Notes under the pieces: generated by a model
Told to the model about the DNA's origin: nothing
Seen by the model: the letters and a program-made list of their open reading frames with translations, nothing else
Databases searched by the model: none
Shown here: one piece after another, positions 8,838 to 24,979 of the stretch
How the letters are laid out: the number at the start of each line of letters is the position of its first letter
Position numbering within the stretch: position 1 is the stretch's first letter
Position numbers and translations under genes: made by a program
NCBI GenBank assembly: GCA_964605155.1
Contig: CAZSAK010000001.1
Span: forward strand, 150,124-214,123
Reading direction: 5' to 3'
Length of the DNA stretch: 64,000 nucleotides
DNA from: an uncultured Chromatiaceae bacterium
GTDB taxonomy: Bacteria; Pseudomonadota; Gammaproteobacteria; SZUA-140

Positions 8838-8872
8838 CGATCGTTGCCGATCAGGACTGTGCAATCACACCG

Positions 8873-8906
8873 AGCCGGATGCCTGACAGCATCCGGCTTT
8901 GTTTTT
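8873..8906 (+). terminator. Rho-independent terminator
   Basis: AGCCGGATGC-ctgaca-GCATCCGGCT followed by TTGTTTTT. Confidence 0.85.
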
Positions 8907-8991
8907 GCAACCAGGGCATAATCACAGTAAATTACGGGGCTGATCGTTATCGTCAATCTCGTCCGGTTAACCATATGAGCAGGGAGAAGGC

Positions 8992-10050
8992 ATGAATAAA
9001 ATTATCGGGTCTTGGGCAATCATCAGTCTGCTGTCGTTACCGCAACTATCCATGGCCGAGATGGACATTACCGGTATCGCGCATCTGTCGGTTGATGTGA
9101 CCGATGATGGCAGTAAATCTTCCCCCGGCAATGATCCGGATGGCGTGCAGGTCGTCAGCCACAAGTCCCGGATTGCCTTCAGTGGTGATGAGGAGCTGGG
9201 CCCCGGTCTGGCGTTTATCTGGCAATACGAGGCGGTGTTCAGCGCGGATACGGGTGCTTTCAACGGCAATACCGATGACAATGACAACAGTATCGATACC
9301 TGGGACAGCTATATCGGTCTTGATGGCAGCATCGGCAGCTTCAAAGGTGGCCATATGGCGACACCCTACCGGCAGGCCACCGATCCGCTGGATATCTTCA
9401 TCGACACCACGGCCGATTTTAATTCCATTTTTGGCGTCAATCCCAACAGCACCAATAACCATGATCTGCGTGCATCGAATATCTTGACTTATCAATCACC
9501 TGATGAGAAAAAGCTGTACGGGTCCATTGCCTATATCGCCGACGAGGACCAGGATGGCGTGAATGAACCTGGATTGAGCCTGAGCGTGGTTTTTAATAAT
9601 CAAGTGCTCTATATGACAGCTGCCTATCAATCATTGAAAAGAGTGGGTGTGGGTGGCGAAGATGATAAGGCCATCAAGTTTGGAGGTGGCTGGGATTTCG
9701 GCCAGGGCACCAAGGTTGGGATTGTATGGGAGTCCCTGGACGCCGGTGGCACCAATAATGACCGTGACGCCTACCAATTCAATATTTCGCATCTGACGGG
9801 GAATAATACCTTCAAGCTTGCCTACACCGTTGCGGATGATGTCGGGGGGGTGAGTGACAGCGGTGCGTCGAATATCGCCATTGGCCTGTTTCATGCTCTG
9901 TCCCGCTCCACCGAATGGTACGGACTTTACACAGTGACGAATAACGATACCCTGGTTGGATACGGGCTGGAAACCGTCCCGAATGGTGCCATAGGGGAGA
10001 ATGTATCGGCCTTTTCATTTGGCCTGAGACATGAATTCAACAACCTCTGA
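8992..10050 (+). CDS. General Gram-negative porin (OmpC/porin_4-like)
   Basis: Signal peptide. SRIAFSGDEELGPGLAFIWQYE, LRASNILTYQSP, LSRSTEWYGLY and the C-terminal FGLRHEF.. resemble classical trimeric porin signatures. Confidence 0.7.
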   Translation: MNKIIGSWAIISLLSLPQLSMAEMDITGIAHLSVDVTDDGSKSSPGNDPDGVQVVSHKSRIAFSGDEELGPGLAFIWQYEAVFSADTGAFNGNTDDNDNSIDTWDSYIGLDGSIGSFKGGHMATPYRQATDPLDIFIDTTADFNSIFGVNPNSTNNHDLRASNILTYQSPDEKKLYGSIAYIADEDQDGVNEPGLSLSVVFNNQVLYMTAAYQSLKRVGVGGEDDKAIKFGGGWDFGQGTKVGIVWESLDAGGTNNDRDAYQFNISHLTGNNTFKLAYTVADDVGGVSDSGASNIAIGLFHALSRSTEWYGLYTVTNNDTLVGYGLETVPNGAIGENVSAFSFGLRHEFNNL

Positions 10051-10325
10051 TTAAGTGTTGAGGCATGTTTTGCAGATATCGATGCGAACTGATTGTGTCC
10101 CTTCGATATATATCGGATTTCTTAACACCGGCAGTGTGATCTTTGCCGGAGTCCTCGGGAAGCGTGTTGTATAGATAAATCAGTCTAACTCATGTAATGT
10201 CAGGCAAATACAGGGGTATACAGCGTGATAGCTAGGATTCATCTGACGAATATGCTATCTTATTGCTATTTAAAAAGAAAAGGTGATGGTGTGCCTACAC
10301 TAGAACACCGAGAGGGGCAGGGTTG

Positions 10326-11162
10326 ATGAAAAGATTTCATCATGAGGTCAAATCCTGGATCCGCGGCGCAGGATTCCTGTGTATTTTAACGTTTCTGAAC
10401 CACGCCGCCGTGGCCGGTATTTTTAATACCAAGCATAACCTTGGCAGCACCGGTATCAATGCCGCCAGTAATTTCAGCGGTACCAGTGAGATATGCGTGT
10501 TCTGCCACACACCTCATGGCGGTGATGCGTCCGCAGCCGTGCCCTTATGGAACCGTCATCTGGATCCCAATGGTTATCAAACCTATGACCAGCTCGGCAC
10601 CACCACCCTGGATGCAGCCATCGAACCGGTCGGTTCGGTGTCGATTGCATGCCTGTCCTGTCATGACGGGACACAGGCCATGGACTCCGTGATCAACGAA
10701 CCGGGTTCGGGAACGGATGTACCCGCATTCTCAAACGGTATCTGGAGTGGCCAGGCGGCGTCAGTTAACGGACGGTTGGGTCCGACCACTGTCATTACCA
10801 ATATCGGCAAGGACCTGACCAATGACCATCCAATCGGCGTGCAATTCGCGGGTGGCGGGTATTCAGCGTCAAACCCCGGCGGACCGGGTTCGGATTCCGA
10901 TTTTCATCAGGCGGATACCAAGTTTCTGGGTACCACCCGGATATGGTGGGTCAACACCAATACGGAGGGCGCTACCAGCGATTTTGAAAAGACCGATATG
11001 AAGCTATATACCCGCATCGGAACAGTCGGGGTGTTTCCGGGAGAGCCACAACCGTATGTTGAGTGTGCTTCCTGCCATGACCCTCATGTGGACTACAATC
11101 CGACGTTTTTACGCATCGACCCTAGCGGCAGTGCAGTGTGTCTTACCTGCCACAACAAATAA
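10326..11162 (+). CDS. Tetrahaem c-type cytochrome (paired-CXXCH type)
   Basis: Signal peptide. Motifs CVFCHTPH, CLSCHDG, CASCHDPH and CLTCHNK. An N-terminal KHNL motif and LTNDHPI are shared with the cytochromes at 19646 and 55231. Confidence 0.85.
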   Translation: MKRFHHEVKSWIRGAGFLCILTFLNHAAVAGIFNTKHNLGSTGINAASNFSGTSEICVFCHTPHGGDASAAVPLWNRHLDPNGYQTYDQLGTTTLDAAIEPVGSVSIACLSCHDGTQAMDSVINEPGSGTDVPAFSNGIWSGQAASVNGRLGPTTVITNIGKDLTNDHPIGVQFAGGGYSASNPGGPGSDSDFHQADTKFLGTTRIWWVNTNTEGATSDFEKTDMKLYTRIGTVGVFPGEPQPYVECASCHDPHVDYNPTFLRIDPSGSAVCLTCHNK

Positions 11163-11331
11163 GCCCAGTACCATCTGTTAACCAGGTCGCAGTGGTTGGT
11201 TCGTCAGATTGCCATATGAAGATTGTTGGAACTGACAATCTCCAGGCACGGGAAGTGCATATGGTTTTGTATCCGCTATGGCGGCGAAAGGTTCGTCAAC
11301 GGGGACTGACAGCCGGACACCACATCGCGGC

Positions 11332-12333
11332 ATGAACGGGGGTATAAACCGGGCCTTTTTGTTGGTGGTTGTGCTGGCGGCCACGGCATCGGCGGGAGAG
11401 ATGCAAGGCCATGACGGGATTAGGTGGGAAAAGGCCCAATTACCGGAATCGGTATTTGCCATTGTGGGGGATGAGACAATTACTCTGGAACAATATCAAG
11501 TCAATCTTCATGCCAGTATCAAGCAACGGTTTTTTCACGGCAATATCCCACAGGACAAGCTTGATGCGCTGCGCGGTGAAGTTGCCGGCCAGTTGATTGA
11601 TCGCGTGCTGTTACGTCGGGAGGCCAAACGCCGCGGGCTCGCACCTGATTCTGCATGGGTCAAGCAACGCGAAGATGAGATCTCCCAGCGTTACCGTGCA
11701 AGCCCGCAGTGGGAGAAAAATAAACAAGACCTGCTTGCGACCCTGCGCGCGCAACTGGAGGAAGACAGTTTGATCGACCATCTCGAGTCCCTGGTCAAGG
11801 AGCAGGTTCCCGCACCGAGCGATGAAGAGGTGCATCGGTATTACAAAACGCACCAGGACAGGTTCACCACACCTGAAAGGATGCGCGTTTCAATCATACT
11901 GCTGAAGGTCGAGCCCTGGTCTCCAGATACGGCATGGCAGGCGGCTATTGATGAGGCGCGGCGGTTGATTGCGCAGTTACGCGATGGCGGCGGGCATGAT
12001 TTTGCTGAACTGGCACGGTTTCATTCGAGTGATGAATCCGCCGAGGCGGGCGGTGACCTGGGCTATGTACATAAAGGGATGTTGACTGACGAAGCACAGC
12101 AGGTCCTGGATAAAATGCATGTTGGTGATATATCGGAGCCTGTGCAGTTATTAAGGGGTATTGCAATCTTCCGTCTGGATGAACGCGACGAGCCTGTCCT
12201 GAATTCATTCGAGGACAGTGCAAAACGTGCGCAAGGCTTATTGATCAGGGAAAGAAAGGAGCAGGTATGGGGGGAATTTCTGGAAGCTTTACGCGCTAAC
12301 ACGCGAATCAGGGTGAATGAATCGATGCTTTGA
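11332..12333 (+). CDS. Periplasmic parvulin-type peptidyl-prolyl isomerase (SurA/PpiD-like)
   Basis: Signal peptide AFLLVVVLAATASA. The C-terminal rotamase core is HSSDESAEAGGDLGYVHKGML...VGDISEPV...GIAIFRL. Start chosen at MNGG (11332). Confidence 0.75.
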   Translation: MNGGINRAFLLVVVLAATASAGEMQGHDGIRWEKAQLPESVFAIVGDETITLEQYQVNLHASIKQRFFHGNIPQDKLDALRGEVAGQLIDRVLLRREAKRRGLAPDSAWVKQREDEISQRYRASPQWEKNKQDLLATLRAQLEEDSLIDHLESLVKEQVPAPSDEEVHRYYKTHQDRFTTPERMRVSIILLKVEPWSPDTAWQAAIDEARRLIAQLRDGGGHDFAELARFHSSDESAEAGGDLGYVHKGMLTDEAQQVLDKMHVGDISEPVQLLRGIAIFRLDERDEPVLNSFEDSAKRAQGLLIRERKEQVWGEFLEALRANTRIRVNESML

Positions 12334-12402
12334 GATTCATGCAACCCATATTGGAGGTTGTTCTGATAATAAAATATCGGCCATGCCAAAAGGCTGGAGC
12401 GG

Positions 12403-14175
12403 TTGACAATGAAAGCAACATACCAGATGAATGCGGGAAGACTTGATCTCAGGCTGTGCCCGTTGATGGTCATCGCGCTGCTGACGCCGTTGACATCCGC
12501 GGCAGAGGATATCGTCGATCTATCGGGGAGTGTCGGCTATACCTTCCGTTCACTCAGCAGTTCGGGTGATGACGATACTGTCAGCAACCAGTTGCGCGGT
12601 ACGCTTAACGCAAGATCCTACCTGTGGCAGCCGTGGTTTGCTACGGTAGATGCCCATGTCGCGATGACGCAGGATAATACCGAATTCGGCGATAACACGA
12701 CCAATGAAACCACCATTCTGACCGGCGATCTTGATCTCAACGTCATGCCGAAAAGCCGTGCCCCCTTTCAATTGCTCTATCGATCCAGTAACAGCCGTGT
12801 CGATATGAAGACCCGAGAAAGCCCGCTGACCACCCTGGGTGACAAGGAATATGAAACAACACGTCTGGGATTGAAACAGTCCTACTATACCGAGAAGGGT
12901 GACCGCTACCAACTGAGATACGACCTTAGCAACTGGTCGACGGACAGTGGCGCGAGTTTTGATGATAAACAGCTCGGTGTGGAAATAAACCTTCAGCGAC
13001 CCAAACAACGCCTGGTCGCGAGGACCAGTTACCAGATCACCGAACAATCACAAACCGACCGTGAATCCGATAATTTCGTCGTCAACGTCGACCACTTCTG
13101 GTATCCGTCACGCTCCCTGCGCGCCGACAGTATGTTCAACATTTACAACTCCGACGTGACATCCACGCAGCCGCCTCTGGGTACCAATCAGGGCGATTAC
13201 AACACCGACCTGTTGCAGTTGTCCAATTTCTGGTTCTGGCGCCCTGAAGACAAGCCGCTTACGGTCAGTGGTGGTGTCCGGTATTACGATCTCAGCGCAG
13301 ATACCACCGGCAACGAAACACAACTGCAAAGCGTCAATGCCACGGCCGGCATGTTTTATCAGTATTCCAAATACCTTCGTTTTGACGCCAATCTCGATGT
13401 ATCCACGATCGATAACGGCGAGGATCAGGCCGTTACCTCGAAGGAACGGGGCGGAGTACTTTACCAGTCGGATATACTGGATATTTTTTCAGGATTTACC
13501 TATCAGTGGTATGCAACCGGATCGGCTCAGAATCAGGAGACGGAGGATCTGAGTATCCAGAGTCTGGGGGCCAAGCTGGGGCATGATGCCAATAAACTCT
13601 GGATCATGGGAGAGGCATCGACCCTGCGGTTGAGCCTCAGCCAGTCCATTAACGAGAGCCAGCAGACAGGAGACGCCGATTCATCGATCCAGCGTCTCGA
13701 TAATTCCGCCAGTCTTGGTTGGGACCAGACGAAGTGGGGAGGGACCTCGCTCATCCAGTTGACGGTCAGGGACGGACGAGATTTCGGGGACAGCGACGCC
13801 GAGGAACAGTTCGTCAATTTCCAGGCAGTGCGAAACCAGCCCATCAATCGCAGCAGTTCACTGTCGGGAAACCTTACTATCCAGTCGGTGCACCGTAAAT
13901 TCACCGATACGGGCGAAGGCAATACCATTACTACCACGACTGGCCAGATAAATTACCAGCACTCCCGCATATTCGGGGTGATAAATCTGCATTTCTTGTC
14001 CGATCTGAGAATTTCCAAGGCTGCCAGCGACTTTACCTATGACAGGGCTGAATGGGAGAACCGATTGGACTATAATATCGGTCTGCTGGATATCAGCCTG
14101 AGTTGGCGCAGGATCGATACGGAAGCCGATGATTTTGATTTAGTATATGTACAGGCAACACGCCGTTTTGACTGA
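12403..14175 (+). CDS. Secreted 590-aa protein, predicted outer-membrane beta-barrel of unrecognised family
   Basis: Signal peptide ...LTPLTSA/AED. The mature part has no Cys. Alternating polar/aromatic dipeptide strands run throughout (YTFRS, LLYRSS, YQLRYDLS, FYQYSKYLRFDANLD), and the C-terminus is ...YVQATRRFD. Start is TTG 12403 or ATG 12409. Confidence 0.55.
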   Translation: MTMKATYQMNAGRLDLRLCPLMVIALLTPLTSAAEDIVDLSGSVGYTFRSLSSSGDDDTVSNQLRGTLNARSYLWQPWFATVDAHVAMTQDNTEFGDNTTNETTILTGDLDLNVMPKSRAPFQLLYRSSNSRVDMKTRESPLTTLGDKEYETTRLGLKQSYYTEKGDRYQLRYDLSNWSTDSGASFDDKQLGVEINLQRPKQRLVARTSYQITEQSQTDRESDNFVVNVDHFWYPSRSLRADSMFNIYNSDVTSTQPPLGTNQGDYNTDLLQLSNFWFWRPEDKPLTVSGGVRYYDLSADTTGNETQLQSVNATAGMFYQYSKYLRFDANLDVSTIDNGEDQAVTSKERGGVLYQSDILDIFSGFTYQWYATGSAQNQETEDLSIQSLGAKLGHDANKLWIMGEASTLRLSLSQSINESQQTGDADSSIQRLDNSASLGWDQTKWGGTSLIQLTVRDGRDFGDSDAEEQFVNFQAVRNQPINRSSSLSGNLTIQSVHRKFTDTGEGNTITTTTGQINYQHSRIFGVINLHFLSDLRISKAASDFTYDRAEWENRLDYNIGLLDISLSWRRIDTEADDFDLVYVQATRRFD

Positions 14176-14218
14176 ACGGCCCGGCTTTATAAAAACAATG
14201 ACGAGGAGATTGTTCGTT

Positions 14219-14698
14219 ATGCAACCCAATACCCTTCGGAACAGAGCATGGATAGGTGCGATCATCATCGGCCTGTTGGCCGTGACCGGCATTGTATTGT
14301 CACCCCAGCCGGCAAAGGCTGAATACGCCGATGTCGTGATCAACAATTTCGCCGATGCGGCAGGCATGCGCCCCGTCGTATTTCCTCACTGGTTTCACCG
14401 TATCCGATTTCGTTGCAAGGTCTGTCATGCCGATCTTGGCTTCAAGTTCAAGGCGGGTGGCAACAAGATCACCATGGCAAAGATCATCGACGGCAAGTTC
14501 TGCGGTGCCTGTCATAACGGGCAGATCGCCTGGTCGGTCGAGAATTGTTCTATGTGCCATTCGGGTATCCCCGGTACGCCGACCCACTTTTCAGGCAGCA
14601 CGGTGCAACGGCTGGTGGCTCCTGCTTACAAGCCGCTCAGCAGCAGCCCTGCCGCTACAAGTTCCACTAATACCGGTAGCAGCAATAACAATAAATAA
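14219..14698 (+). CDS. Membrane-anchored c7-type trihaem cytochrome with a Ser/Thr/Asn-rich tail
   Basis: N-terminal TM helix AWIGAIIIGLLAVTGIVL. VVFPHWFH...CKVCH...GKFCGACHNG...CSMCH is the c(7)-type trihaem domain pattern. GAGGAG lies 9 nt upstream of ATG 14219. Confidence 0.8.
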   Translation: MQPNTLRNRAWIGAIIIGLLAVTGIVLSPQPAKAEYADVVINNFADAAGMRPVVFPHWFHRIRFRCKVCHADLGFKFKAGGNKITMAKIIDGKFCGACHNGQIAWSVENCSMCHSGIPGTPTHFSGSTVQRLVAPAYKPLSSSPAATSSTNTGSSNNNK

Positions 14699-14710
14699 AG
14701 GAAGAGCGCC

Positions 14711-15466
14711 ATGAATGATAAAATCAAAGCAATTTCCTTTACCCTGACGGTACTGGTGTCCGCCCTCTCATGCAGCGCACAGAGTCAGGCCGTGGGAGGC
14801 ATGGATGGCAGTAAGCCCATGACGGCCGAGCAGGCCTATAAAGGTCTGGATTATGCCCCTGATCCCCGTAGTGTCGATGAAGTCGCACAGCCCGTCGTTG
14901 AAATCATTCACCTCGCCCAGGTGTCCGAAGCCAATACCTTCAATCAGAACCTGAAAAAACCGAAGGGCAGAAACCTGCCGCCGACGGAAGATGGCATCCA
15001 TGACCCGGCCAATGATGCAACTAGCGTGTTGCAGCCCCCCAAGGAGGCATACAAGGGTCTGCCCACCACCGAATTCGGCAATTATGTCGACTGGGTCAAG
15101 GCGCTGGATGAGGAAAAGATCAAGCCGCGCTGGGACCGCGTCAATCCGGATGAGGAACCCTTTGTTATGGATCTTGATATCGTACGGCCGGTAAAGGCAT
15201 CGGTTCCCGACGTGGTATTTCCTCATCGTCAGCACACCGAATGGCTGTATTGTTCAAACTGCCACCCGGCGATCTTCATACCGCAAAAGGGCGCAAATCA
15301 GATCAATATGTCGGCAATTCTGCTGGGACAGAAATGTGGCGTGTGTCATGGCAAGGTCTCATTTCCGATCTCGACACTGACCTGCAAGAAATGTCATTCC
15401 AAGCCCAAACCCGACGACTGGAAGCCGCCGCTTAGCGAGGCGACCTTGAAGAATCCCTGGAAATAA
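14711..15466 (+). CDS. Periplasmic c7-type trihaem cytochrome
   Basis: Signal peptide. DGIHDP motif. VVFPHRQHTEWLYCSNCH...QKCGVCHGKVSFP...CKKCH. Paralog of the ORF at 16902. Confidence 0.8.
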   Translation: MNDKIKAISFTLTVLVSALSCSAQSQAVGGMDGSKPMTAEQAYKGLDYAPDPRSVDEVAQPVVEIIHLAQVSEANTFNQNLKKPKGRNLPPTEDGIHDPANDATSVLQPPKEAYKGLPTTEFGNYVDWVKALDEEKIKPRWDRVNPDEEPFVMDLDIVRPVKASVPDVVFPHRQHTEWLYCSNCHPAIFIPQKGANQINMSAILLGQKCGVCHGKVSFPISTLTCKKCHSKPKPDDWKPPLSEATLKNPWK

Positions 15467-15483
15467 CTGGGAAATAGCCGGGC

Positions 15484-16848
15484 TTGTGTATTTTATCAGG
15501 GACGAACAACGTATTGCCGAGATGGTGTAAGCGCAGCGGCAACCTGCGCGGAAATATAGGCATACTTGTTGCGATAGCGCTGGTAACGATCAGCGCACGA
15601 GCGGCCGATGTCGGCGTACCGGAGCCTGAGCAGATATTTGTGGTGACTGTGGCCGAGAAGGATGCCACGCACCCCAATTTCGGGATCGGCAGCAAGCTGG
15701 GTATGGTTGTCGACGGCGTACAAGGAAAAGAGTTGATACTGACACGTGGCAAAACCTATGCGTTTAAAGTTGAAACCAACGTTCAACACGATTTTTATCT
15801 TACTACCAGTCCCGTCGGCCGGGGTGCCGAAGTGCTGACGGAAGGGGTGACCGGGAATTTTACCTATCGCGGCATTGTGACCTTTACACCATCCGGCGCG
15901 ACTCCGGATATCGCCTACTATCAGTGCCGGAACCACAAGGCAATGGGCGGCAAGCTGCATATTGTAGACCCGGGTGAAGAAGGCACGGTTGTTTTAGAGT
16001 CTGTGCAAAGTCGGGAAGAGGCACCGTCCGCTAATGCCGGCAACAATGAGACGTCAATCGTTAGTGAATCGCAGGTCAATCAAAAGATCAGCTTTGCGGA
16101 GATGTTCATCAATCAATCACAGGCGGCCAAACGCATTACCCAGGGGACCAATGCCGATGCCCTGGCCATATACCGGCAATCACAGGAAACCCTTGCTGCT
16201 GCAAGGGAGAGCGTTGACCTGGGCAATTTCGGTCAGGCCATGAGTAGCGTCGACGAGGCCTTGCGTCTGATGAGTGAGGCGTCACGGTTGGTACCAAGTG
16301 CCGCACAAATCGAAGAACAGCGCAGCCGCTTTGAGGAGTTGCAGGAAGGCGTCAAGACATTCGAGGCATCGTACACGAAAAACCTGCAGCGCCTGTCGGG
16401 CCAGGAAGGAAAGGATATCGATCGACTTGATCTCGAAGAGATTCATAAGATGGTGGATCAGGCGACCAGGCTTGGCAACGACGGCCAGTATGTCGAGGCA
16501 AACAGGCTGCTTGCCAGGGCGCAGAGAAACATTACTGCTGTCCTCAGTAAAATGCTCGACAATACCACCGTCGTATACGACAAGAATTTCGATACTCCGC
16601 TTGAAGAGTACGAATATGAGCTGGCCCGTTATCAGAGCTATGAAGAATTGGTTCCAATCGCAATCGAACAAAAACAACCATCGAAACGGGCTATTGAGTT
16701 AATGGATCAGTTTGTCGAGAAGGCCAAGGGCCTGAAGGATCAGGCCGATCAGGAAGCCGCAAGCGAAAACTACACGACCACGATCCAGATGCTCCAGGCG
16801 GCTACCGACCACTTGCAGCGCGCGTTACAGATTGCCGGTGTGAGATAA
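15484..16848 (+). CDS. Cupredoxin-like domain fused to an alpha-helical repeat region of about 270 aa
   Basis: Signal-like N-terminus. H(QHDFY)-X45-C-X2-H-X2-M in YYQCRNHKAMGGKLHIV has the amicyanin-type Cys-His-Met loop spacing. The C-terminal half is Ala/Glu/Gln-rich with three helical repeats of about 45 aa. No in-frame ATG lies near the N-terminus, so the start (TTG 15484, TTG 15514 or CTG 15544) is uncertain. Confidence 0.55.
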   Translation: MCILSGTNNVLPRWCKRSGNLRGNIGILVAIALVTISARAADVGVPEPEQIFVVTVAEKDATHPNFGIGSKLGMVVDGVQGKELILTRGKTYAFKVETNVQHDFYLTTSPVGRGAEVLTEGVTGNFTYRGIVTFTPSGATPDIAYYQCRNHKAMGGKLHIVDPGEEGTVVLESVQSREEAPSANAGNNETSIVSESQVNQKISFAEMFINQSQAAKRITQGTNADALAIYRQSQETLAAARESVDLGNFGQAMSSVDEALRLMSEASRLVPSAAQIEEQRSRFEELQEGVKTFEASYTKNLQRLSGQEGKDIDRLDLEEIHKMVDQATRLGNDGQYVEANRLLARAQRNITAVLSKMLDNTTVVYDKNFDTPLEEYEYELARYQSYEELVPIAIEQKQPSKRAIELMDQFVEKAKGLKDQADQEAASENYTTTIQMLQAATDHLQRALQIAGVR

Positions 16849-16901
16849 CGTGAAGCGGCTAGTGACGCCGCCGCTGTCCTAACAGGGGGACATATTTAAA
16901 T

Positions 16902-17519
16902 ATGAAAATGAATATGTTTAATAACCGCAGTCACCTCGTGTGGCTCTGTATGTTGTGCCTTGTCATGACAGCGGCTCTCAGGGCCGCGGAGAACAACGGT
17001 GATGGGCGGCAACAGTCGCAATCGAAGCTGATTTATTCCCGGGGACTGCATTTCCAGACAGAAGGCGAGATCGTACCTATTGAGAAGGACGGCATTCACG
17101 ATCCCGAGAATCCTGCGGTCAAGGTCCTGCAGGAACCCTATGAGGCGATGAAAAATTTCCCCAGAGATACACAAGGCATCATTGATTGGGTACAGGTATT
17201 GAGGCAGGGGCTGATCGATCCTCGCAAAAGCCTGACCGGCGAGGAACAGATGTTCCCGGTGGATTTCGACATTATCCTCAAGAATACCGGCTCCATGCCA
17301 CATGTCAGGTTTCCTCACCAGGCCCATACTGAATGGCTGACCTGTGCAAACTGTCACCCGCTTATATTCATACCACAAAAAGGGGGTAACCCCATTACGA
17401 TGTCAGGCATCATTCAGGGAAAATATTGTGGTGTTTGTCACGGCAAGGTTGCCTTTCCGCCCACGATGAATTGCGGCAGATGTCACTCCGTAGCCAATGA
17501 AGTCAACCTGATGCGTTGA
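16902..17519 (+). CDS. Periplasmic c7-type trihaem cytochrome
   Basis: Signal peptide. DGIHDPENPAVKVLQEP. VRFPHQAHTEWLTCANCH...KYCGVCHGKVAFP...CGRCH. Confidence 0.8.
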   Translation: MKMNMFNNRSHLVWLCMLCLVMTAALRAAENNGDGRQQSQSKLIYSRGLHFQTEGEIVPIEKDGIHDPENPAVKVLQEPYEAMKNFPRDTQGIIDWVQVLRQGLIDPRKSLTGEEQMFPVDFDIILKNTGSMPHVRFPHQAHTEWLTCANCHPLIFIPQKGGNPITMSGIIQGKYCGVCHGKVAFPPTMNCGRCHSVANEVNLMR

Positions 17520-17582
17520 TGTGAAGCAGCAAGTGTCAACATGTGTCAACGCAAGGTGCTGACTGACGAGCAGGCGAATGCA

Positions 17583-18563
17583 ATGAACAGATCAGCGACT
17601 ATCTTAATTATGACGGTCATCGTTTTCGCGATAGCCGGCTGCGCCTCATTGATGAATGCCCGGAACCCGGCGGCGAATGGTCAAAACAATGCAAACGCCG
17701 GACAGGTGGTTTTCTGGGAGACGATCGACGGCGGCACACAAGGCAATGCGGTGATCGGTGTCGATCATGTACGTTTTGTGCGCCCGGTTGCCGTTGCCGC
17801 GCGTGGAAATTTTATCTACGTGGTGGATGCCGGCAAGGACCTGGTGTATCGCTATGCTCGGGATTTCGGCACGCTTACCGTGTTGAAGGATTTACGCTCC
17901 GTCGTGGCGGGCGAAGTGCGGGATATATATGTCGACGGTGACCTGTCCTTTTATATCACCGATACCGACGGCGGACGCGTGCTGCATTTTGATCCTGACG
18001 GCAACCTGGTACAGGTATTCGAGGACAAGCGTAACCTGGCCAGACCGGTCTCGATCATCGTCGACGAGACCAGTGGCCTGATCTACATTGCGGATGGTTT
18101 CAATGACGATGTGATGATCTTCAACCGTCTGGGTGCATTGCAGGGCGCCATCGGAGCGCGCGGGACGGATGCAGGTGAATTTACCAATATACAGGCCATC
18201 GCCTCGGGGCCTGACGGCATCTACGTGGCATGTCGGCTCGGTCACCGGGTTCAGGAAATTAGTCGCGATGGCGACTATATCAAGTCCTTCGAAGCAAATA
18301 CCGTAACGTTTCCGCTCGCCATCGTCGTCGATCGGGACAAGCGCGCATTTGTCGCCGATTACCTCGACAATACCATCAAGGTCTACGCCGATGGCCGGCT
18401 GATTGACCGGCTTGGCGGTTCCGGCTCGACACCGGGACGCTTCAAGCGTATCACCGGGATGTGGCTCGACGAAGGGCAGTTGTATGTCGCCGACAGTCTC
18501 AACGAGCGCATTCAGGTGGCGCGCATCATGCCGTTGAACGACTCACAGGTTACCAATCCATGA
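17583..18563 (+). CDS. NHL-repeat beta-propeller lipoprotein
   Basis: Lipobox FAIAGC. Repeated NHL units such as IYVVDAGKDLVYRY, IYIADGFNDDVMIF, AFVADYLDNTIKVY and LYVADSLNERIQV. Start chosen at MNRS (17583). Confidence 0.8.
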   Translation: MNRSATILIMTVIVFAIAGCASLMNARNPAANGQNNANAGQVVFWETIDGGTQGNAVIGVDHVRFVRPVAVAARGNFIYVVDAGKDLVYRYARDFGTLTVLKDLRSVVAGEVRDIYVDGDLSFYITDTDGGRVLHFDPDGNLVQVFEDKRNLARPVSIIVDETSGLIYIADGFNDDVMIFNRLGALQGAIGARGTDAGEFTNIQAIASGPDGIYVACRLGHRVQEISRDGDYIKSFEANTVTFPLAIVVDRDKRAFVADYLDNTIKVYADGRLIDRLGGSGSTPGRFKRITGMWLDEGQLYVADSLNERIQVARIMPLNDSQVTNP

Positions 18564-18584
18564 TGTCCGGATAATTGTCAAATC

Positions 18585-19649
18585 ATGAGGTACAGCACCC
18601 ATAAAATCGTTTTGTTTTTGCTGGTCTGCTGTTTGGTGGTTTCCGGTTGTGCCCAGACCCACAGCGTCCTGCGTTACAATGTCAACGATGAACCATCGCA
18701 GGTGTGGCCCTCTGAACCTGAAAAACCCCGTTATCGTTATGTCGGTGAGCTGACCGGCGAGCAGAATATCATCAACGACAGTAAAGAACGCTCTTTCGGC
18801 AGCAAGTTGCTGGGCTGGCTTACAGGGCTTGTTGCGGGTAAACGGAAACCGACCGTACTGCAGCGACCACAAGGCGTGTATGTCGACCAGGCGGGGCGTA
18901 TCTATATATCGGATGTCAGCCGCAGTGCCGTTTACGTGTTTAACGAAACCGAAGGGACGCTCGACGTGTGGGAGATGGCGGGCAAGAATATCCGTTTTGA
19001 GACCCCGGTCGGGATGACCGAGGATTCCTCGGGTGACCTGCTGGTCGTGGACGCCGATCTGGGTTATGTCGTGCGCCTGAATCAGCAAGGCCAACCTGTC
19101 GGCAAATTCGGCAAAGGCCTGTTCAAGCGCCCCACCGGTATCGCATTCGATGCGGTCAACGACAGGATCTTTGTGGCGGATACTCACGACAATAACATCA
19201 AGGTCTTTGATGAGGCTGGAAACCTGCTGGATACACTCGGCGAGTTCGGAGCTCAGGATGGTCAGTTCAACAGCCCTACCTATCTTGCGTATAAAGAAGA
19301 CCAGCTCTATGTCACCGATACCCTCAATGCACGCATCCAGGTCTTTTCTGCGAGCGGTGACTATATCCGGTCGATCGGTAAACGCGGCCTGTACGTCGGT
19401 GATCTTCCCCGTCCCAAGGGCGTTGCCGTGGACCAGGACAACAATATCTACGTGGTGGAATCGTATTATGATTATCTGTTAGTATTCAGTGACAAAGGAG
19501 AGTTTCTACTACCCATTGGAGGGACAGGAAGCGGCGTTGGTGAGTTTTACCTTCCCGCGGGTGTATGTACTGACCAGCGCAATCGGGTATACGTTGCCGA
19601 TGCCTTTAACGGTCGTGTAGTGATATTACAATATTTGGGAGCGGCATGA
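18585..19649 (+). CDS. NHL-repeat beta-propeller lipoprotein
   Basis: Lipobox VVSGC. NHL units IYISDVSRSAVYVF, IFVADTHDNNIKVF, LYVTDTLNARIQVF, IYVVESYYDYLLVF and VYVADAFNGRVVIL. Confidence 0.8.
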   Translation: MRYSTHKIVLFLLVCCLVVSGCAQTHSVLRYNVNDEPSQVWPSEPEKPRYRYVGELTGEQNIINDSKERSFGSKLLGWLTGLVAGKRKPTVLQRPQGVYVDQAGRIYISDVSRSAVYVFNETEGTLDVWEMAGKNIRFETPVGMTEDSSGDLLVVDADLGYVVRLNQQGQPVGKFGKGLFKRPTGIAFDAVNDRIFVADTHDNNIKVFDEAGNLLDTLGEFGAQDGQFNSPTYLAYKEDQLYVTDTLNARIQVFSASGDYIRSIGKRGLYVGDLPRPKGVAVDQDNNIYVVESYYDYLLVFSDKGEFLLPIGGTGSGVGEFYLPAGVCTDQRNRVYVADAFNGRVVILQYLGAA

Positions 19650-22306
19650 GACGGCAGTTACAGGGCATGTTGTTGACACTGTTTGCGGCTTCGATACTGG
19701 TCGCAGGTATCGCCCACGCTGCGCGCATCTCCGATATCCAGAATACCAAGCATAATTTTTCCGCCACGGTACAGCCCTCCCCCGACGTCAACCGCGTGGC
19801 ACACGCTACCACCGAATCACAGATCTGTGCCTTTTGTCACACGCCGCACGGTGCTACCAAGGAACCTCGCGCACCGATATGGAACCGTACCCTGTCCAGC
19901 GCAACCTATATACCGTTCAATTCCGGATCACTGGATGCGACGGATCTTGGACAGCCGGGCGGCAAATCCAAACTCTGTCTGTCCTGTCATGATGGAACCC
20001 TGGCATTGGGGGCGGTCAATGTGCTGAACCGTGTTGAGCTGAAGAAAAACAATCAAACCATTCCCTTCACGGGAACCATGCCTGACGGCACGATCCCCGA
20101 AGGACTGGGCGCGACCACGGGATTTACCCGCAGGCTGGGGGTTGACCTGACCAACGACCATCCGATCTCATTTACCTTCGACAGTGCGCAGGCGGCCCGC
20201 GACGGAGAGTTGCGGGATCCTTCAGCCGTATCGCATATCGCAGAACGCGTGCCGGGGGTCAAGCCCCTTATACCGATCGAAGACAACAAGGTGGAATGTA
20301 TCAGTTGTCATGATCCGCATATCCGTTCCGACGTGCCGGGTGAAAACATCAAGTTCCTGCGCGTCAACCGCTTTCAGAAACAGCCTCCCTCGCAAGGCAC
20401 CTTCAATGCGGACAACGATATCATCTGTCTGGCCTGTCATGACAAGGCGGGTTGGGTCGGTTCGGCCCATGCCAATATCGCCGTCGGTAACAAACGCTAC
20501 AGTGTGCCCGCCGCGGATTTACGTGAATTTCCACGTGATATCGAGGTGTGGCAGGCAGCCTGTCTGAATTGCCATGATCCACACACCGTGCAGGGGGCTC
20601 GCAGGATATTGCGCGAAGGTACCGATGGCCCTGTGTTGACGACGGCCAGTGGCGCCAAGTACAAGCAGGGTGGTAACTCCGCCATCGAGCAGGTGTGTTA
20701 TGCCTGCCACTCGGCCGATGGCGGTGTTTTGCAGAATCAGGGCACCTCGAATTTCGAGGTGCCGAATATCAAGACGGACTTCACCACCATGTTGCGTCAC
20801 ATGCCGATTGCGAGCATCGATCAGCCCGCGGGGTTTGAGGTGCACGACATCGGTACCGGTGACTCCATCCAGGGCGATCAACGCGGCAAGGATTTTATCG
20901 AATCGCGGGAGAATATCGGCAAGGGCAATCTCCATAACCGTCATGCCGAATGTACCGATTGCCATAATCCGCACCGCGTGATGAAAAACCGGCTTTTCAA
21001 TGCGGACAATACCGTCCCGGATCCTGCCGGTACCCATGAGCATGAAGACGGTGTGCCACATACCAATCTGGCCTCCGGCGTGCTGCGCGGCATCTGGGGG
21101 GTTGAGCCCGTATACGGTACCTCGGAGTTCGGCAGTGAACCGGTTACATTCGAGGTCAAGCGGGGTGATCCCACCGTCGGTAGCAGCACCGCCGTCAGTG
21201 CGCCCTATGTGACGCGTGAGTACCAGGTGTGCATGAAGTGTCACTCCAACTATGCCTATGATCAGCCGCCGTTGCTGGGGTCGTTTACCGGCGGCACACC
21301 GCCCGGCACCAATGCACTGACCCGTTATACCAACCAGGCAATGGAATACCAGACACCGCTCGGACATGATGGCGAAGGCACTGCGCCGACACCCACCGGC
21401 GCCTATGTCGGCGCGGCGACATGTACGTTTACATCGACCGATACCGATAACGTTGACCATGTCATCACAGGGACGCTCGACGAGAACGGCGGCTGCGCGA
21501 ATTTTGTCGACAATAACCATCGTGCATGGCATCCCGTTACCAACCCAACGGGACGTACACCACCGGTGCGTAAGGCCGATGCCGATGACTGGCGCTCACC
21601 GTTCAATGCAGCGGTCGGTAGTCAGACCATGTACTGTACCGATTGTCACGGCTCTACAACTGCCCCGGACACGGTAGTGCCGAACGGCGGTGAAAACGGT
21701 TCTCCGTGGGGCCCGCACGGCTCCAATGACAATTTCCTGCTTAAGGGTCCATGGGACAATCAGACGGGAGAATTTCAGTCGAATGGATTGTGTTTTCGTT
21801 GTCACGACTTCAGGCAGTATGGCAGGGGTCTGCCGCCACCCTATACCAATCCGGGGTTTCCGGATCAGGTTCGGCAAAGCGGATTCAGGATGTCGGTCGG
21901 TTCCGCATCCGGATGTCTGCCGTTCAAGTTGACCAACCTGCATGCTGGTCACTCCAGTATTATCACCAATTTCCGTTGTACCTATTGTCATGTTTCTATT
22001 CCTCATGGCTGGAAGAACAAGGTATTCCTCGCCAATTTGAATGATGTGGGCCTTGAGGCACCGCTATTACCGGGCGAGATACCCAACGCCGCCGGCAGCC
22101 GTCAGGTCAGGGTCAGCGTGGGTGGCACTGCCCCGCGTTACTACAACGGTCCCTACTACAACGGCGCTGCATTAAAGGTGCGCTATTTCTCACGCAGCGG
22201 TGAATGGACGGATGCCAATTGCGGTTCCTCGGGTCCGCCCGGTAACGGAATTACAGGATTCAACTGGATGAATGGCAGTAATGAATCTTGTGCGAATCTG
22301 CCATGA
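19646..22306 (+). CDS. Undecahaem c-type cytochrome, 886 aa, secreted
   Basis: Signal peptide ...GIAHA. Eleven CXXCH motifs: CAFCH, CLSCH, CISCH, CLACH, CLNCH, CYACH, CTDCH, CMKCH, CTDCH, CFRCH, CTYCH. The ATG overlaps the stop of the preceding NHL gene (ATGA). Confidence 0.88.
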   Translation: MRRQLQGMLLTLFAASILVAGIAHAARISDIQNTKHNFSATVQPSPDVNRVAHATTESQICAFCHTPHGATKEPRAPIWNRTLSSATYIPFNSGSLDATDLGQPGGKSKLCLSCHDGTLALGAVNVLNRVELKKNNQTIPFTGTMPDGTIPEGLGATTGFTRRLGVDLTNDHPISFTFDSAQAARDGELRDPSAVSHIAERVPGVKPLIPIEDNKVECISCHDPHIRSDVPGENIKFLRVNRFQKQPPSQGTFNADNDIICLACHDKAGWVGSAHANIAVGNKRYSVPAADLREFPRDIEVWQAACLNCHDPHTVQGARRILREGTDGPVLTTASGAKYKQGGNSAIEQVCYACHSADGGVLQNQGTSNFEVPNIKTDFTTMLRHMPIASIDQPAGFEVHDIGTGDSIQGDQRGKDFIESRENIGKGNLHNRHAECTDCHNPHRVMKNRLFNADNTVPDPAGTHEHEDGVPHTNLASGVLRGIWGVEPVYGTSEFGSEPVTFEVKRGDPTVGSSTAVSAPYVTREYQVCMKCHSNYAYDQPPLLGSFTGGTPPGTNALTRYTNQAMEYQTPLGHDGEGTAPTPTGAYVGAATCTFTSTDTDNVDHVITGTLDENGGCANFVDNNHRAWHPVTNPTGRTPPVRKADADDWRSPFNAAVGSQTMYCTDCHGSTTAPDTVVPNGGENGSPWGPHGSNDNFLLKGPWDNQTGEFQSNGLCFRCHDFRQYGRGLPPPYTNPGFPDQVRQSGFRMSVGSASGCLPFKLTNLHAGHSSIITNFRCTYCHVSIPHGWKNKVFLANLNDVGLEAPLLPGEIPNAAGSRQVRVSVGGTAPRYYNGPYYNGAALKVRYFSRSGEWTDANCGSSGPPGNGITGFNWMNGSNESCANLP

Positions 22307-23385
22307 TCAAGGTAATGCGAAAACTGGCATCGACTCGGCTGACCCTGGTGGGTATGGCACTGCTCGGGATCGGCGCGGCGCTCAGCTATGACAACCCGGT
22401 GAGCACACCTGTGTGGGTGCTGGTTGTGCCATTGGCATTCCTTGCGGTCAATCTGCTCTGCGCCATTCTGACCAATTCCCGTATCAACCGGCGAGGTGGC
22501 CTGTTGATCTTTCATATCGCCTTGTTTGGCATTATCGTGCTGGCGGCCATTGGACGTATGACGCATATGGAGGCGCATCTTGAAATCATCCAGGGCGGTG
22601 GATTCTCGCAGGACGACCTGATCAACAACCGTACCGGTCCCTTGCATGCGGGTGAACTCGACAAGGTGATGTTCGTGCAAGGGAATTATACGGTCGATTA
22701 TGCCCCCGGCATGACGCGCGGATTGACGCACAGCCATGTGATGGTGCCGGACGGCCGCGGCGGCTGGGAGGAAAAGGTTATCGGAGACGACAGGCCGCTG
22801 ATCATCAACGGCTATCGATTCTATACCACCTTCAATAAAGGTTTCTCGCCCATGTTGACGTGGATACCTGAGCGCGGCAGGCCGGTATCGGGTACGGTCA
22901 ATATGCCCTCGTATCCACTGTTTGAGTTCAAACAGTCCAACAGCTGGACGCCGCCGGGGGGCAAGGAGATCAATTTCTGGCTGCAACTGGATACCGGCAT
23001 CGATGACCAGGGTCATTGGACCCTGGATGCCAGGAAGGCCAGGGGCACGCTGGTCATCAATACCAGCGACAAGCGGATTGAATTGCAACCCGGTGAGCGC
23101 GCGGTCCTGGATGGCGGTGTCCTGCGTTATGACCGTCTGACAAGCTGGATGGGGTACAAACTCTTCTATGATCCTACACTGCACTGGCTGTTTATCACTG
23201 CGATCTTTGGTATTTTCGGGCTTGCCACGCACTTCTGGCGCAAGTTCAAGGCGCTTCCCATACGCTCGCCCAAACCCTCAGAAGGTACTCTCAAACCTGC
23301 CTGGTCCGAAGACCAGGGAATTGTTCCGGTGGACAACGGGGTACAGGTAACCATGGCAACCAACAAGGGCCAGCCTAATGTGTAA
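22303..23385 (+). CDS. ccsB: ResB/CcsB-like System II cytochrome c biogenesis protein (short form)
   Basis: N-terminus MIKVMRKLASTRLTLVGMALLGIGAA resembles ResB. It has a TM-His segment (LLIFHIALFG), a periplasmic domain and a C-terminal TM helix. It overlaps the cytochrome stop (ATGA) and precedes ccsA. Confidence 0.65.
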   Translation: MIKVMRKLASTRLTLVGMALLGIGAALSYDNPVSTPVWVLVVPLAFLAVNLLCAILTNSRINRRGGLLIFHIALFGIIVLAAIGRMTHMEAHLEIIQGGGFSQDDLINNRTGPLHAGELDKVMFVQGNYTVDYAPGMTRGLTHSHVMVPDGRGGWEEKVIGDDRPLIINGYRFYTTFNKGFSPMLTWIPERGRPVSGTVNMPSYPLFEFKQSNSWTPPGGKEINFWLQLDTGIDDQGHWTLDARKARGTLVINTSDKRIELQPGERAVLDGGVLRYDRLTSWMGYKLFYDPTLHWLFITAIFGIFGLATHFWRKFKALPIRSPKPSEGTLKPAWSEDQGIVPVDNGVQVTMATNKGQPNV

Positions 23386-23393
23386 GAGGAATC

Positions 23394-24254
23394 ATGTTTG
23401 AAATAAACGGGATCTATACGGAACTTCCCTGGCTTTATACCGGGCTGGCGGCCTATGCGCTTGCCACCGTGGTTGCCATCCAGGGGGTGGTCAGGGTTCG
23501 CGGCGGATCCGCGGGTGCCACGGTAAACCGTTCCTACGAACATATCGTGCTGGGTTTTGCATTGGCAGGCGTGGTGTTGCTGGCCATGTCGATCGGCGAG
23601 CGCTGGATACGCATCGGGCATGGCCCGTTCGTCAACCTGTTCGAGCTGTTGATGAGTCAGCTGTTCAGCCTCGGGTTGATTTACACACTGATATACTGGC
23701 GCTACCCGGTGTTGCGTCCGAGTGCCGTGGTTGCATTGCCTTTGATGTGGATACTGGGGATCTGGGTGTTGACGCTGGATCCCGCCGGAAGCGCGTTTCC
23801 TCCCACTTACTACAATAAGTGGTTATGGGCCCATGTGGGCTTTGGCAAGATCTTTCTTTCCTTTTGTCTGGTAGGCACGGGTATCGCGGGCGTGATCCTG
23901 CTGCGAGGCGTCAAGCGTGTCTCATCATGGTTCCGGCAGATGCCGGCGGATACTGTACTGGACGCGCTGGCATGGCGCTTCATGCTGCTGGCGTTTATTT
24001 TCCACAGCCTGATGCTGGTGGCGGGCGCCGTGTGGGCACAGGATGCCTGGGGACGATACTGGGCCTGGGATGCGCTCGAGACCTCGTCCTTTCTGAACTG
24101 GTTATTGCTGGGCGCATCGATCCATGCCCGCACCACCTATCGCATACCTATACGCATCGGTGCATTGTTGATCATCGGAATTTTTGTATTTGCCTTTATG
24201 ACCTATTTCGGCGCGCCTTTTTACAGTCAAGCCGCGCACAAGGGTGTGATATGA
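23394..24254 (+). CDS. ccsA: CcsA/ResC cytochrome c assembly (haem-handling) protein
   Basis: Polytopic membrane protein with the Trp-rich WAQDAWGRYWAWDALETSS (WWD-type) motif and flanking His residues. Confidence 0.8.
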   Translation: MFEINGIYTELPWLYTGLAAYALATVVAIQGVVRVRGGSAGATVNRSYEHIVLGFALAGVVLLAMSIGERWIRIGHGPFVNLFELLMSQLFSLGLIYTLIYWRYPVLRPSAVVALPLMWILGIWVLTLDPAGSAFPPTYYNKWLWAHVGFGKIFLSFCLVGTGIAGVILLRGVKRVSSWFRQMPADTVLDALAWRFMLLAFIFHSLMLVAGAVWAQDAWGRYWAWDALETSSFLNWLLLGASIHARTTYRIPIRIGALLIIGIFVFAFMTYFGAPFYSQAAHKGVI

Positions 24255-24979
24255 GTATGTCTAATACCACGAGATCGCGTCATGACAATGAGTCCGCCGT
24301 CACATCACTTTCCATTGTGATGGTGGGTGTGATTGCGATTTCTCTTGTTATGCTGGTGCAGCATCTTGAACGGCCCGGCCATTTACCGACGGCAACACAA
24401 AAAACGGCTGATATCGATCTGTTTTCCCGCGATACCGGCGGCTCACAACAGGTTTCGCAGCAGGACCAGACCCCGGCAAGCGAACTGGAGGTGCGATTCC
24501 AGCAGGCGGTGTACATGCTGCATGCAGGCCATTATGATGACGCCGTGACCGCGTTGCACCGCGTCATGGAACTTTCCCCGCGTATGCCCGAGGCCTATGT
24601 CAACATGGGTTTTGCGCTGTACGGCCTGAAGCGTTACAAGGCGGCGCGTGATTTCTTTGATGCCGCGACCGATATCCGGCCCTACCAGGGCAATGCCTAC
24701 TGGGGTATTGCTATCAGCCTGGAAAAACTCGGCGATCTCAAAGGTGCGCTGGGCGCGATGCGTACCTATATCCACCTCGCCCCGCCGAATGACCCCTATG
24801 TGACAAGGGCACGTTCCGCCTTGTGGGAGTGGGAGACCACGCTCAAGCGCGGACCGCTGTCGGACGAAGAGCGGGCGTTTATTGCCCGTGGTGAACAGCA
24901 ATGGGAAGACCGCAACAGTCCGGATCGTGATGCGCCCGACCGGGGCGATTCCACCATCCCGGTACGTTCCATCAACTAG
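24251..24979 (+). CDS. Membrane-anchored TPR protein
   Basis: MSMSNTT... start overlaps the ccsA stop (ATGA). One TM helix, then TPR units (AVYMLHAGHYDDAVTALHRVMELSP, AYVNMGFALYGLKRYKAARDFFDAATDIRP, AYWGIAISLEKLGDLKGA). Confidence 0.7.
   Translation: MSMSNTTRSRHDNESAVTSLSIVMVGVIAISLVMLVQHLERPGHLPTATQKTADIDLFSRDTGGSQQVSQQDQTPASELEVRFQQAVYMLHAGHYDDAVTALHRVMELSPRMPEAYVNMGFALYGLKRYKAARDFFDAATDIRPYQGNAYWGIAISLEKLGDLKGALGAMRTYIHLAPPNDPYVTRARSALWEWETTLKRGPLSDEERAFIARGEQQWEDRNSPDRDAPDRGDSTIPVRSIN

Follow-up and report, generated by a model that had tools for sequence, protein, structure and literature searches.

The window analysed here, a stretch of 64,000 nucleotides of DNA from an uncultured Chromatiaceae bacterium (contig CAZSAK010000001.1), contains a gene that is an ortholog of uetF, situated in a uet (undecahaem electron transfer) porin-cytochrome cluster. 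Its product, UetF, is composed of an N-terminal cupredoxin-like domain with a type-1 copper ligand set and a C-terminal helical region, and we consider it likely that the protein acts as a one-electron type-1 copper relay of the Uet chain, with the helical region as a docking domain. The features of the gene are listed below, where residues are counted, as in the rest of the text, from the TTG codon at 15514.

15514..16848, plus strand: uetF coding sequence (444 amino acids and stop codon) from a conserved TTG; the public protein P0001 (444 amino acids) is 100% identical
15514..15603, plus strand: predicted Sec-type signal peptide (residues 1-30, ending in LVTISARA and followed by ADVG), with no lipobox Cys and no tether; read from the sequence with the -3/-1 Ala rule
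15628..15969, plus strand: cupredoxin-like beta domain (residues 39-152, eight strands), a divergent member of PF25489 as judged from the AlphaFold2 model (predicted local distance difference test, pLDDT, above 90), Foldseek and a profile search
15787..15789, plus strand: codon of His92 in the HDFY motif, predicted to be the first ligand of copper; the residue is invariant in 120/120 and 74/74 sequences
15925..15945, plus strand: ligand loop Cys138-Arg-Asn-His141-Lys-Ala-Met144, between strands 133-138 and 146-151; Cys, Asn and His invariant, Met in 120/120 and 73/74
15970..16059, plus strand: interdomain linker (residues 153-182) modelled with low confidence (pLDDT below 50 at 165-180; mean conservation 0.32)
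16060..16299, plus strand: helical unit 1 (residues 183-262), hairpin turn LGN at 236-238, from the model and a profile comparison
16300..16569, plus strand: helical unit 2 (residues 263-352), hairpin turn DGQ at 323-325, from the same two sources
16570..16845, plus strand: helical unit 3 (residues 353-444), hairpin turn SEN at 417-419, likewise
16597..16674, plus strand: helix alpha7 (residues 362-387, containing EEYEYELARYQSYEEL), rich in Glu and Tyr, a candidate partner-docking surface

In the N-terminal domain, His92 (in NVQHDFY) is separated by 45 residues from Cys138-Arg-Asn-His141-Lys-Ala-Met144, and the pattern H-X45-C-X2-H-X2-M is thereby complete. When a collection of 5.8 billion proteins was searched, at least 238 homologs were found, all of which were either unnamed or labelled as "hypothetical" or "TPR" (tetratricopeptide repeat). 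In the alignment of the best 120 of them (40-90% identity), H92, C138, N140, H141, M144 and G145 are invariant, and because of this invariance the motif can be judged not to be due to chance. Also, among 74 genome-derived sequences the ligands differ in a single paralog only, the axial Met of which is replaced by Ala, and Lys49 and His53 of a KDxxHPxYGxG loop are nearly invariant. A preliminary description of this DNA, which had been made from its letters alone, had proposed the same complete ligand set; it is present exactly as proposed and is retained in all of the 120 homologs and in 73 of the 74 genomic sequences.

An AlphaFold2 model was built on the 120-sequence alignment (mean pLDDT 88.7), and residues 40-151 were modelled as eight strands with pLDDT above 90. 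In this model, His92 comes directly before the strand 94-97, Cys138 ends the penultimate strand (133-138), and His141 and Met144 are in the loop 139-145 ahead of the last strand (146-151); as far as the model goes, the placement of the ligands relative to the strands is the canonical cupredoxin arrangement. Against the PDB, furthermore, the top Foldseek match of the domain was rusticyanin (E 9e-4, probability 1.0, template modelling (TM) score 0.43), which was followed by multicopper oxidases, copper nitrite reductase (NirK) and plastocyanin with probabilities of 0.98-1.0; indeed, the top 50 matches all have the cupredoxin fold except for entries of the SO1698 peptidase. The preliminary description had read the domain as a cupredoxin with a type-1 copper site and had suggested a Foldseek comparison of a predicted structure, and its reading is supported by the ranking of rusticyanin and other cupredoxins in first place, by the canonical positions of the ligands and by their invariance throughout the family. 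UetF is thus very probably a periplasmic type-1 copper protein, in which a copper ion would be bound at this site.

A copper site in the periplasm might also be used for handling the metal and not for carrying electrons; namely, UetF could be a copper chaperone or store for oxidases or could protect the haem machinery. Some periplasmic copper chaperones are cupredoxin-like in their fold, and the uet cluster does carry maturation genes (ccsBA and a peptidyl-prolyl isomerase, PPIase). Nonetheless, His/Cys/His/Met on a loop that joins the two final strands is the signature of type-1 sites for electron transfer, the chaperones typically use sites rich in Met and His, and the best fold matches of the UetF domain are redox cupredoxins; we hence regard copper handling as highly unlikely.

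The C-terminal region comprises 262 amino acids (183-444) and is rich in Ala (11.8%), Glu (10.3%) and Gln (9.9%), as the preliminary description had stated, with an isoelectric point (pI) of 4.8. The full model shows nine helices in this region, when the kinked first one is counted as one, and so does a model of the domain alone (pLDDT 89.4); we read these modelled helices as three successive three-helix bundles. Three hairpin repeats of about 45 amino acids had been described there previously, and their turns (235-249, 320-336 and 416-430) coincide with the modelled ones at 236-238, 323-325 and 417-419. In a profile-profile comparison, the three segments were aligned in register on a G-D/N-Y/F-x-x-A turn (P 6.6e-6, 2.9e-4 and 1.3e-3; control, P 0.71), and by this comparison the internal repeat is real but weak. 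Its period is nonetheless about 90 residues, from which it follows that the unit is a three-helix bundle and that the 45-residue hairpin is made of the last two helices of that bundle; the three hairpins and their turns are therefore retained from the earlier account, but not the size of the repeating unit.

When the helical domain was examined with Foldseek, no match was obtained at E <= 1e-3. The best partial fold match is the cytoplasmic domain of EzrA (4uy3, spectrin-like; probability 0.92), and single bundles of UetF superpose on the small three-helix proteins 4fzp and 2pmr with TM scores of 0.76-0.79 and a root-mean-square deviation (rmsd) of about 2 A; spectrin-like and EzrA rods have, however, no sequence relation to the helical domain, and the arrangement of its bundles is uncertain (predicted TM score 0.57). 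The protein was annotated as TPR in 2017 and also at JGI. We rejected this reading, given no TPR match in Pfam, a period of about 90 instead of 34 residues and TPR-like structures (Sec17 and Rap) at Foldseek probabilities below 0.1 only; the sole likeness to TPR is the G-D/N-Y/F-x-x-A turn. Matches to YfdX and Vps39 were below threshold (E about 0.009) and were treated as noise from the helical composition, and YfdX recurred in a PDB profile search only at E 9.4. Conservation along the protein is highest in a stretch of 15 residues in helix alpha7, 365-379 (EYEYELARYQSYEEL), where it reaches 0.87 as compared with 0.85 for the copper loop. This acidic and aromatic helix might serve as a surface for docking or, speculatively, as a site related to a metal or a radical.

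The gene was assigned to uetF from its surroundings, in which the order uetABCDEFGHIJ-ccsBA-nrfG matches the published cluster gene for gene. The module is arranged in the window as follows.

10323..24979, plus strand: whole uet module from uetA to nrfG, in an order matching the published cluster and most of the 80 loci compared
10323-11162, plus strand: uetA, tetrahaem cytochrome
11278-12333, plus strand: uetB, PpiC-type PPIase
12403-14175, plus strand: uetC, barrel of 590 amino acids
14147..14698, plus strand: uetD, c7-type trihaem cytochrome; translation probably begins further downstream than 14147
14711..15466, plus strand: uetE, c7-type trihaem cytochrome, directly upstream of uetF
16902..17519, plus strand: uetG, c7-type trihaem cytochrome, directly downstream of uetF
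17541-19649, plus strand: uetH and uetI, NHL propellers
19646-22306, plus strand: uetJ, undecahaem cytochrome
22288-23385, plus strand: ccsB
23394-24254, plus strand: ccsA
about 24251-24979, plus strand: nrfG, TPR protein

The two genes flanking uetF both match PF14522 and TIGR04257 (c7-type trihaem), in agreement with the earlier placement of the gene between trihaem cytochromes. The uet cluster was described in 'Ca. Tenderia electrophaga' and other Tenderiales, where gene 6 is called "Cupredoxin UetF" (Eddie et al. 2022, bioRxiv 10.1101/2022.05.06.490989; mSphere 7:e0022322). In an earlier study of the same organism (Eddie et al. 2017, PMC5371394), the gene Tel_16525 was called a TPR protein and was apparently co-transcribed with three trihaems, the expression of which ranks with the highest of all genes; peptides of Tel_16525 were found on biocathodes and varied with the electrode potential, and a role in protein alignment was proposed for it. 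Uet has been reported also in some Gallionella (PMC10734462). While the preliminary description had known of no characterised blue-copper protein with this fusion, the fusion had therefore already been named and noted twice in the literature, as UetF and as a TPR protein, and is not a new kind of protein. The PCC3 porin-cytochrome cluster of Gallionellaceae was also considered, but it is the gene list of Uet that matches one to one.

Comparison with two MAG (metagenome-assembled genome) genes of 'Candidatus Tenderia sp.' (L064 and L067), which were used here in place of the ALP54627.1 sequence, gave 41-42% identity over residues 35-443 with identical synteny. In species-representative genomes, furthermore, 133 stretches encode a relative of UetF, and among the best 80, which were compared as loci, the order uetD-E-F-G is found in 77, most of them with the whole module; co-occurrence with the cytochrome genes in other genomes, the survey of which the preliminary description had recommended, is thus evident. 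All of the 24 genomes sampled from the family of the window have uetF, whereas in 16 genomes that represent other families in the class it was not found.

Regarding the start of uetF, neither ATG nor GTG is in frame between the in-frame stop codon upstream (TAG, 15475-15477) and the hydrophobic segment, and the earliest in-frame ATG is residue 64, within the beta domain. A non-ATG start is hence needed, as had been pointed out previously, and the candidates in that interval are TTG at 15484, TTG at 15514 and the weaker CTG, ATT and ATA. In the list of open reading frames of the window, the frame 15484..16848 (plus strand) is counted from the first of these and has 454 amino acids. The second is used by the public gene calls (P0001) and is kept, together with AGGGA 11 nucleotides upstream, in L102 and L103, two relatives with 90% and 64% protein identity, the genes of which are also called from the same TTG. 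TTG 15484 is likewise conserved in relatives, and it lies in L103 just 3 nucleotides past the stop codon of uetE. Because of the gene calls in three genomes, the upstream AGGGA and this spacing in L103, the true start is likely, rather than proven, to be TTG 15514; with a start at TTG 15484, the signal peptide would be longer by 10 residues and the mature protein would be unchanged. Three open reading frames on the minus strand that overlap uetF (15432-15752, 15496-15960 and 16282-16677) were discounted, given that the plus-strand frame is conserved in hundreds of homologs.

Elsewhere in the module, the last 29 nucleotides of uetC (14147-14175) are shared with the longest open frame of uetD. 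Translation of uetD probably begins some 23 codons after 14147, given that the uetD of a 90%-identical relative is called at 160 and not 183 amino acids. Also, the stop codon of uetI overlaps the start of uetJ (ATGA, 19646-19649), and uetJ in turn overlaps at its end with ccsB in the longest frame of the latter (22288-22306), both of which suggest translational coupling along the module. Between uetE, uetF and uetG, no promoter- or terminator-like signals were found above chance.

UetF would be exported by its Sec signal peptide as a protein with one cupredoxin domain and an acidic rod of about 260 residues. A lipobox (L-[AS]-[GA]-C) is absent from the signal peptide of the window protein, the only other Cys being at residue 5, before the hydrophobic core. 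In this respect, the window copy differs from most UetF orthologs; namely, 78 of the 120 homologs from metagenomes and at least 47 of 82 orthologs from genomes have a lipobox (L-S/A-A/G-C) and, after it, a 69-154-residue tether in which Ala, Pro and Glu are abundant. A plain signal peptide with no lipobox is nonetheless shared by the window protein and about 21 others in the latter set, and as about a quarter of the orthologs have neither lipobox nor tether, anchoring is, as read from these sequences, dispensable in those lineages. The untethered form and the conserved TTG start are what is particular to the window copy.

We propose that the copper centre of UetF would sit where the Uet chain of the periplasm reaches its inner end, on the side of high potential. 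UetA and UetJ would feed electrons from outside through the UetC barrel to the basic c7-type trihaems UetD, UetE and UetG, from which the electrons would reach the copper centre; they would then be passed to acceptors in the inner membrane, namely haem-copper oxidases and possibly an uphill branch. The helical domain would serve in this chain as a docking or scaffold module that keeps the trihaems beside the copper domain. Indeed, the c7 domains of UetD, UetE and UetG have a pI of 8.9-9.3, as opposed to 4.8 for the helical domain, which fits with electrostatic docking between them, although we only infer it. The genome of the window also encodes two full-length oxidase subunits of the COX1 family (C4:154474-155724 and C7:5271-6533) and two small Cupredoxin_1 (PF13473) proteins of 112-123 amino acids (C32:2726-3019 and C9:87420-87722), a family to which uetF itself was not matched; a genome-wide search for a PF00127 protein gave none. 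These oxidases and small proteins are possible partners of UetF or alternatives to it in the electron path.

Copies of UetF and of its helical domain were also observed outside the uet clusters. A Gallionellaceae MAG (BIN13) has four full-length UetF paralogs with plain signal peptides, located at 8406-9728 and 10010-11329 of L030 in tandem, at 9908-11200 of L032 and at 9971-11293 of L055; the L055 paralog has Ala for the axial Met and Arg for His53. In the same MAG, the minus strand of L101 (6335-8412) encodes a uetD-like gene (65% identity), a uetE-like gene (46%) and then a helical-only paralog, a secreted protein of 314 amino acids with no cupredoxin domain (27% identity over 293 residues, E 3.5e-25). 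From this operon, the helical module appears to be tied to trihaems independently of copper. Two other helical-only paralogs with signal peptides (29-33% identity, about 290-305 amino acids) are outside uet clusters, at 2364-3233 of L099 ('Ca. Tenderia sp.' MAG), between an open reading frame of 768 amino acids and three further ones, and at 6661-7578 of L100 (biocathode MAG). The orphan UetF copies and the helical-only paralogs together indicate that both modules are reusable.

With the four orphan copies away from cytochrome genes in the Gallionellaceae MAG, and with no lipobox and no tether in the window copy and about a quarter of the orthologs, UetF might be considered as a blue-copper shuttle, mobile or independent in part, that is not bound permanently into the Uet complex, is freely soluble in the periplasm here and serves several donors and acceptors. 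Amicyanin, azurin and rusticyanin, which are single-domain cupredoxins, are the classic soluble shuttles. A simple shuttle would not require a conserved helical domain of 260 residues, however, and 77 of the 80 loci strictly keep the gene between uetE and uetG, so that we find this role improbable.

Since several genomes encode the helical domain alone, in one case right behind genes resembling uetD and uetE, UetF could alternatively be chiefly a structural organiser of the periplasmic Uet assembly. The helical rod would then be what functions in it, and the cupredoxin domain would be a module for binding or spacing, with a metal site that is structural or vestigial and off the electron path. 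This would also accord with helix alpha7 as the most conserved segment and with the role in protein alignment proposed in PMC5371394. It is nonetheless hard to explain in a vestigial site why the four ligands as well as N140 and G145 are invariant over 38-90% identity, and thousands of distant domains retain these ligand columns as well. An organiser with no part in electron transfer therefore seems unlikely to us, albeit less so than the shuttle.

Several observations, on the other hand, weigh against the copper relay that we favour. The Foldseek E-values of the N-terminal domain are modest (about 1e-3), with TM scores of 0.43-0.53 and an rmsd of about 6-7 A, and on account of these values the modelled domain is regarded as a divergent cupredoxin. 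UetF gave no match to Copper-bind (PF00127), Cupredoxin_1 (PF13473) or NCBIfam (Pfam E <= 0.01), and no sequence match was found in the PDB, even with the 120-sequence profile at E up to 10. PF25489 is the only Pfam family touched by the N-terminal domain (22.8 bits, E 9.8e-5), and this score is below the gathering score of 27 bits; many UetF orthologs carry a precomputed match to the family. With no classic cupredoxin match at the level of sequence, the assignment as a cupredoxin thus rests on the fold, the ligand pattern and the link to PF25489. As for the role in the Uet chain, the four full-length UetF genes of BIN13 have no cytochrome neighbours and so need not work only with Uet, and the helical-only paralogs of L099 and L100 have no trihaem neighbour, which means that the helical domain can exist without copper or trihaems. 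The sequencing runs that contain uetF are DNA metagenomes (salt-marsh, wetland and soil), none of them being RNA. Furthermore, no purification, metal analysis, spectrum or redox potential is given in the literature describing UetF (bioRxiv 10.1101/2022.05.06.490989 and PMC5371394).

A profile of the UetF N-terminal domain was searched also against 1.84 billion representative proteins and found 5222 of them at E <= 1e-3 and 970 at E <= 1e-10. The relatives other than UetF are either stand-alone proteins of 130-250 residues or large proteins with 2-9 tandem copies of the domain, and the tandem-array proteins (among P0121-P0262) have 800-2900 amino acids. When ten of the relatives were scanned, eight matched PF25489, seven of them above the gathering score and up to 114.7 bits, and one also passed the Pfam threshold of Copper-bind; the same ten also showed DOMON, CHRD, MopE copper-motif, PKD, SprB and T9SS sorting domains. 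In 162 domains that do not belong to UetF, the ligand columns are occupied by His in 148, Cys in 143, His in 140 and Met in 145 (about 90%), which indicates that the C-X2-H-X2-M site belongs to the whole family and not to UetF alone. PF25489 relatives share the His/Cys/His/Met columns with UetF but have no helical tail, and they possess His-Pro where UetF has His-Asp. To our knowledge, PF25489 is not widely recognised as a blue-copper family; it is called "At5g54830-like domain" after Arabidopsis At5g54830, which we take to be a cytochrome b561/DOMON protein.

These relatives allow a broader, tentative possibility to be put forward; namely, UetF might be a copper-haem junction of two independent and widely reused modules, a copper domain and a helical rod that docks trihaems. 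The copper module would then come from the large blue-copper family PF25489, with a loop of amicyanin length and more than 5000 representatives, and the invariant Glu/Tyr helix alpha7 of the acidic rod would dock the basic c7 trihaems. The untethered copy would further imply that anchoring is dispensable, such that the geometry from haem to copper would be set by the rod and not by a lipid leash.

Uet is one of few candidate routes by which bacteria at neutral pH could take electrons from electrodes, iron minerals and steel, and among its components UetF is the sole redox candidate that has no haem. If copper formed a step in such a haem wire, it would set the potential of the pathway at its inner end, similarly to rusticyanin in acidophiles that oxidise iron. 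Being small, available in a soluble, untethered form and endowed with a clear spectroscopic read-out, UetF would also be a good first target for biochemistry. In terms of annotation, such genes are to be named uetF or blue-copper protein and not "hypothetical" or "TPR protein", and PF25489 domains generally carry a type-1 copper ligand set. Two observations made here extend the published accounts: the ligands are conserved throughout PF25489, and in the Gallionellaceae MAG a helical-only paralog follows genes that resemble uetD and uetE.

Among known systems, the closest to the window protein is UetF of 'Ca. Tenderia electrophaga' (ALP54627.1, Tel_16525), which occupies the same place between uetE and uetG in the same 13-gene module and shares the two-part architecture of a cupredoxin domain and a long helical tail. 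The window copy differs from it in the genus, the TTG start and its source, a salt-marsh metagenome. Rusticyanin of Acidithiobacillus ferrooxidans (1rcy, 2cak, 1a3z and 1gy2) ranks first among the structures matched by the N-terminal domain, with E 9e-4 to 4e-3, probability 1.0 and TM scores of 0.43-0.45, while its identity with UetF is 16-19% and there is no relation at the level of sequence. In acidophilic iron oxidation, rusticyanin is the type-1 copper protein that stands in the periplasm between a cytochrome of the outer membrane and acceptors in the inner membrane, and the position proposed for UetF would, by analogy, be logically the same. Rusticyanin has, however, a longer loop (C-X4-H-X4-M, in contrast to C-X2-H-X2-M in UetF), works at acid instead of neutral pH and possesses neither a helical domain nor trihaem neighbours. 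The loop of UetF is the same in length as that of amicyanin, the blue-copper protein of methylotrophs, as the preliminary description had noticed, and C-X2-H-X2-M is the shortest natural type-1 loop. Amicyanin has nonetheless no detectable sequence relation to UetF and is outside the top 50 fold matches, and UetF is distinguished from it by the helical extension of 260 residues and by a genomic context with no methylamine dehydrogenase.

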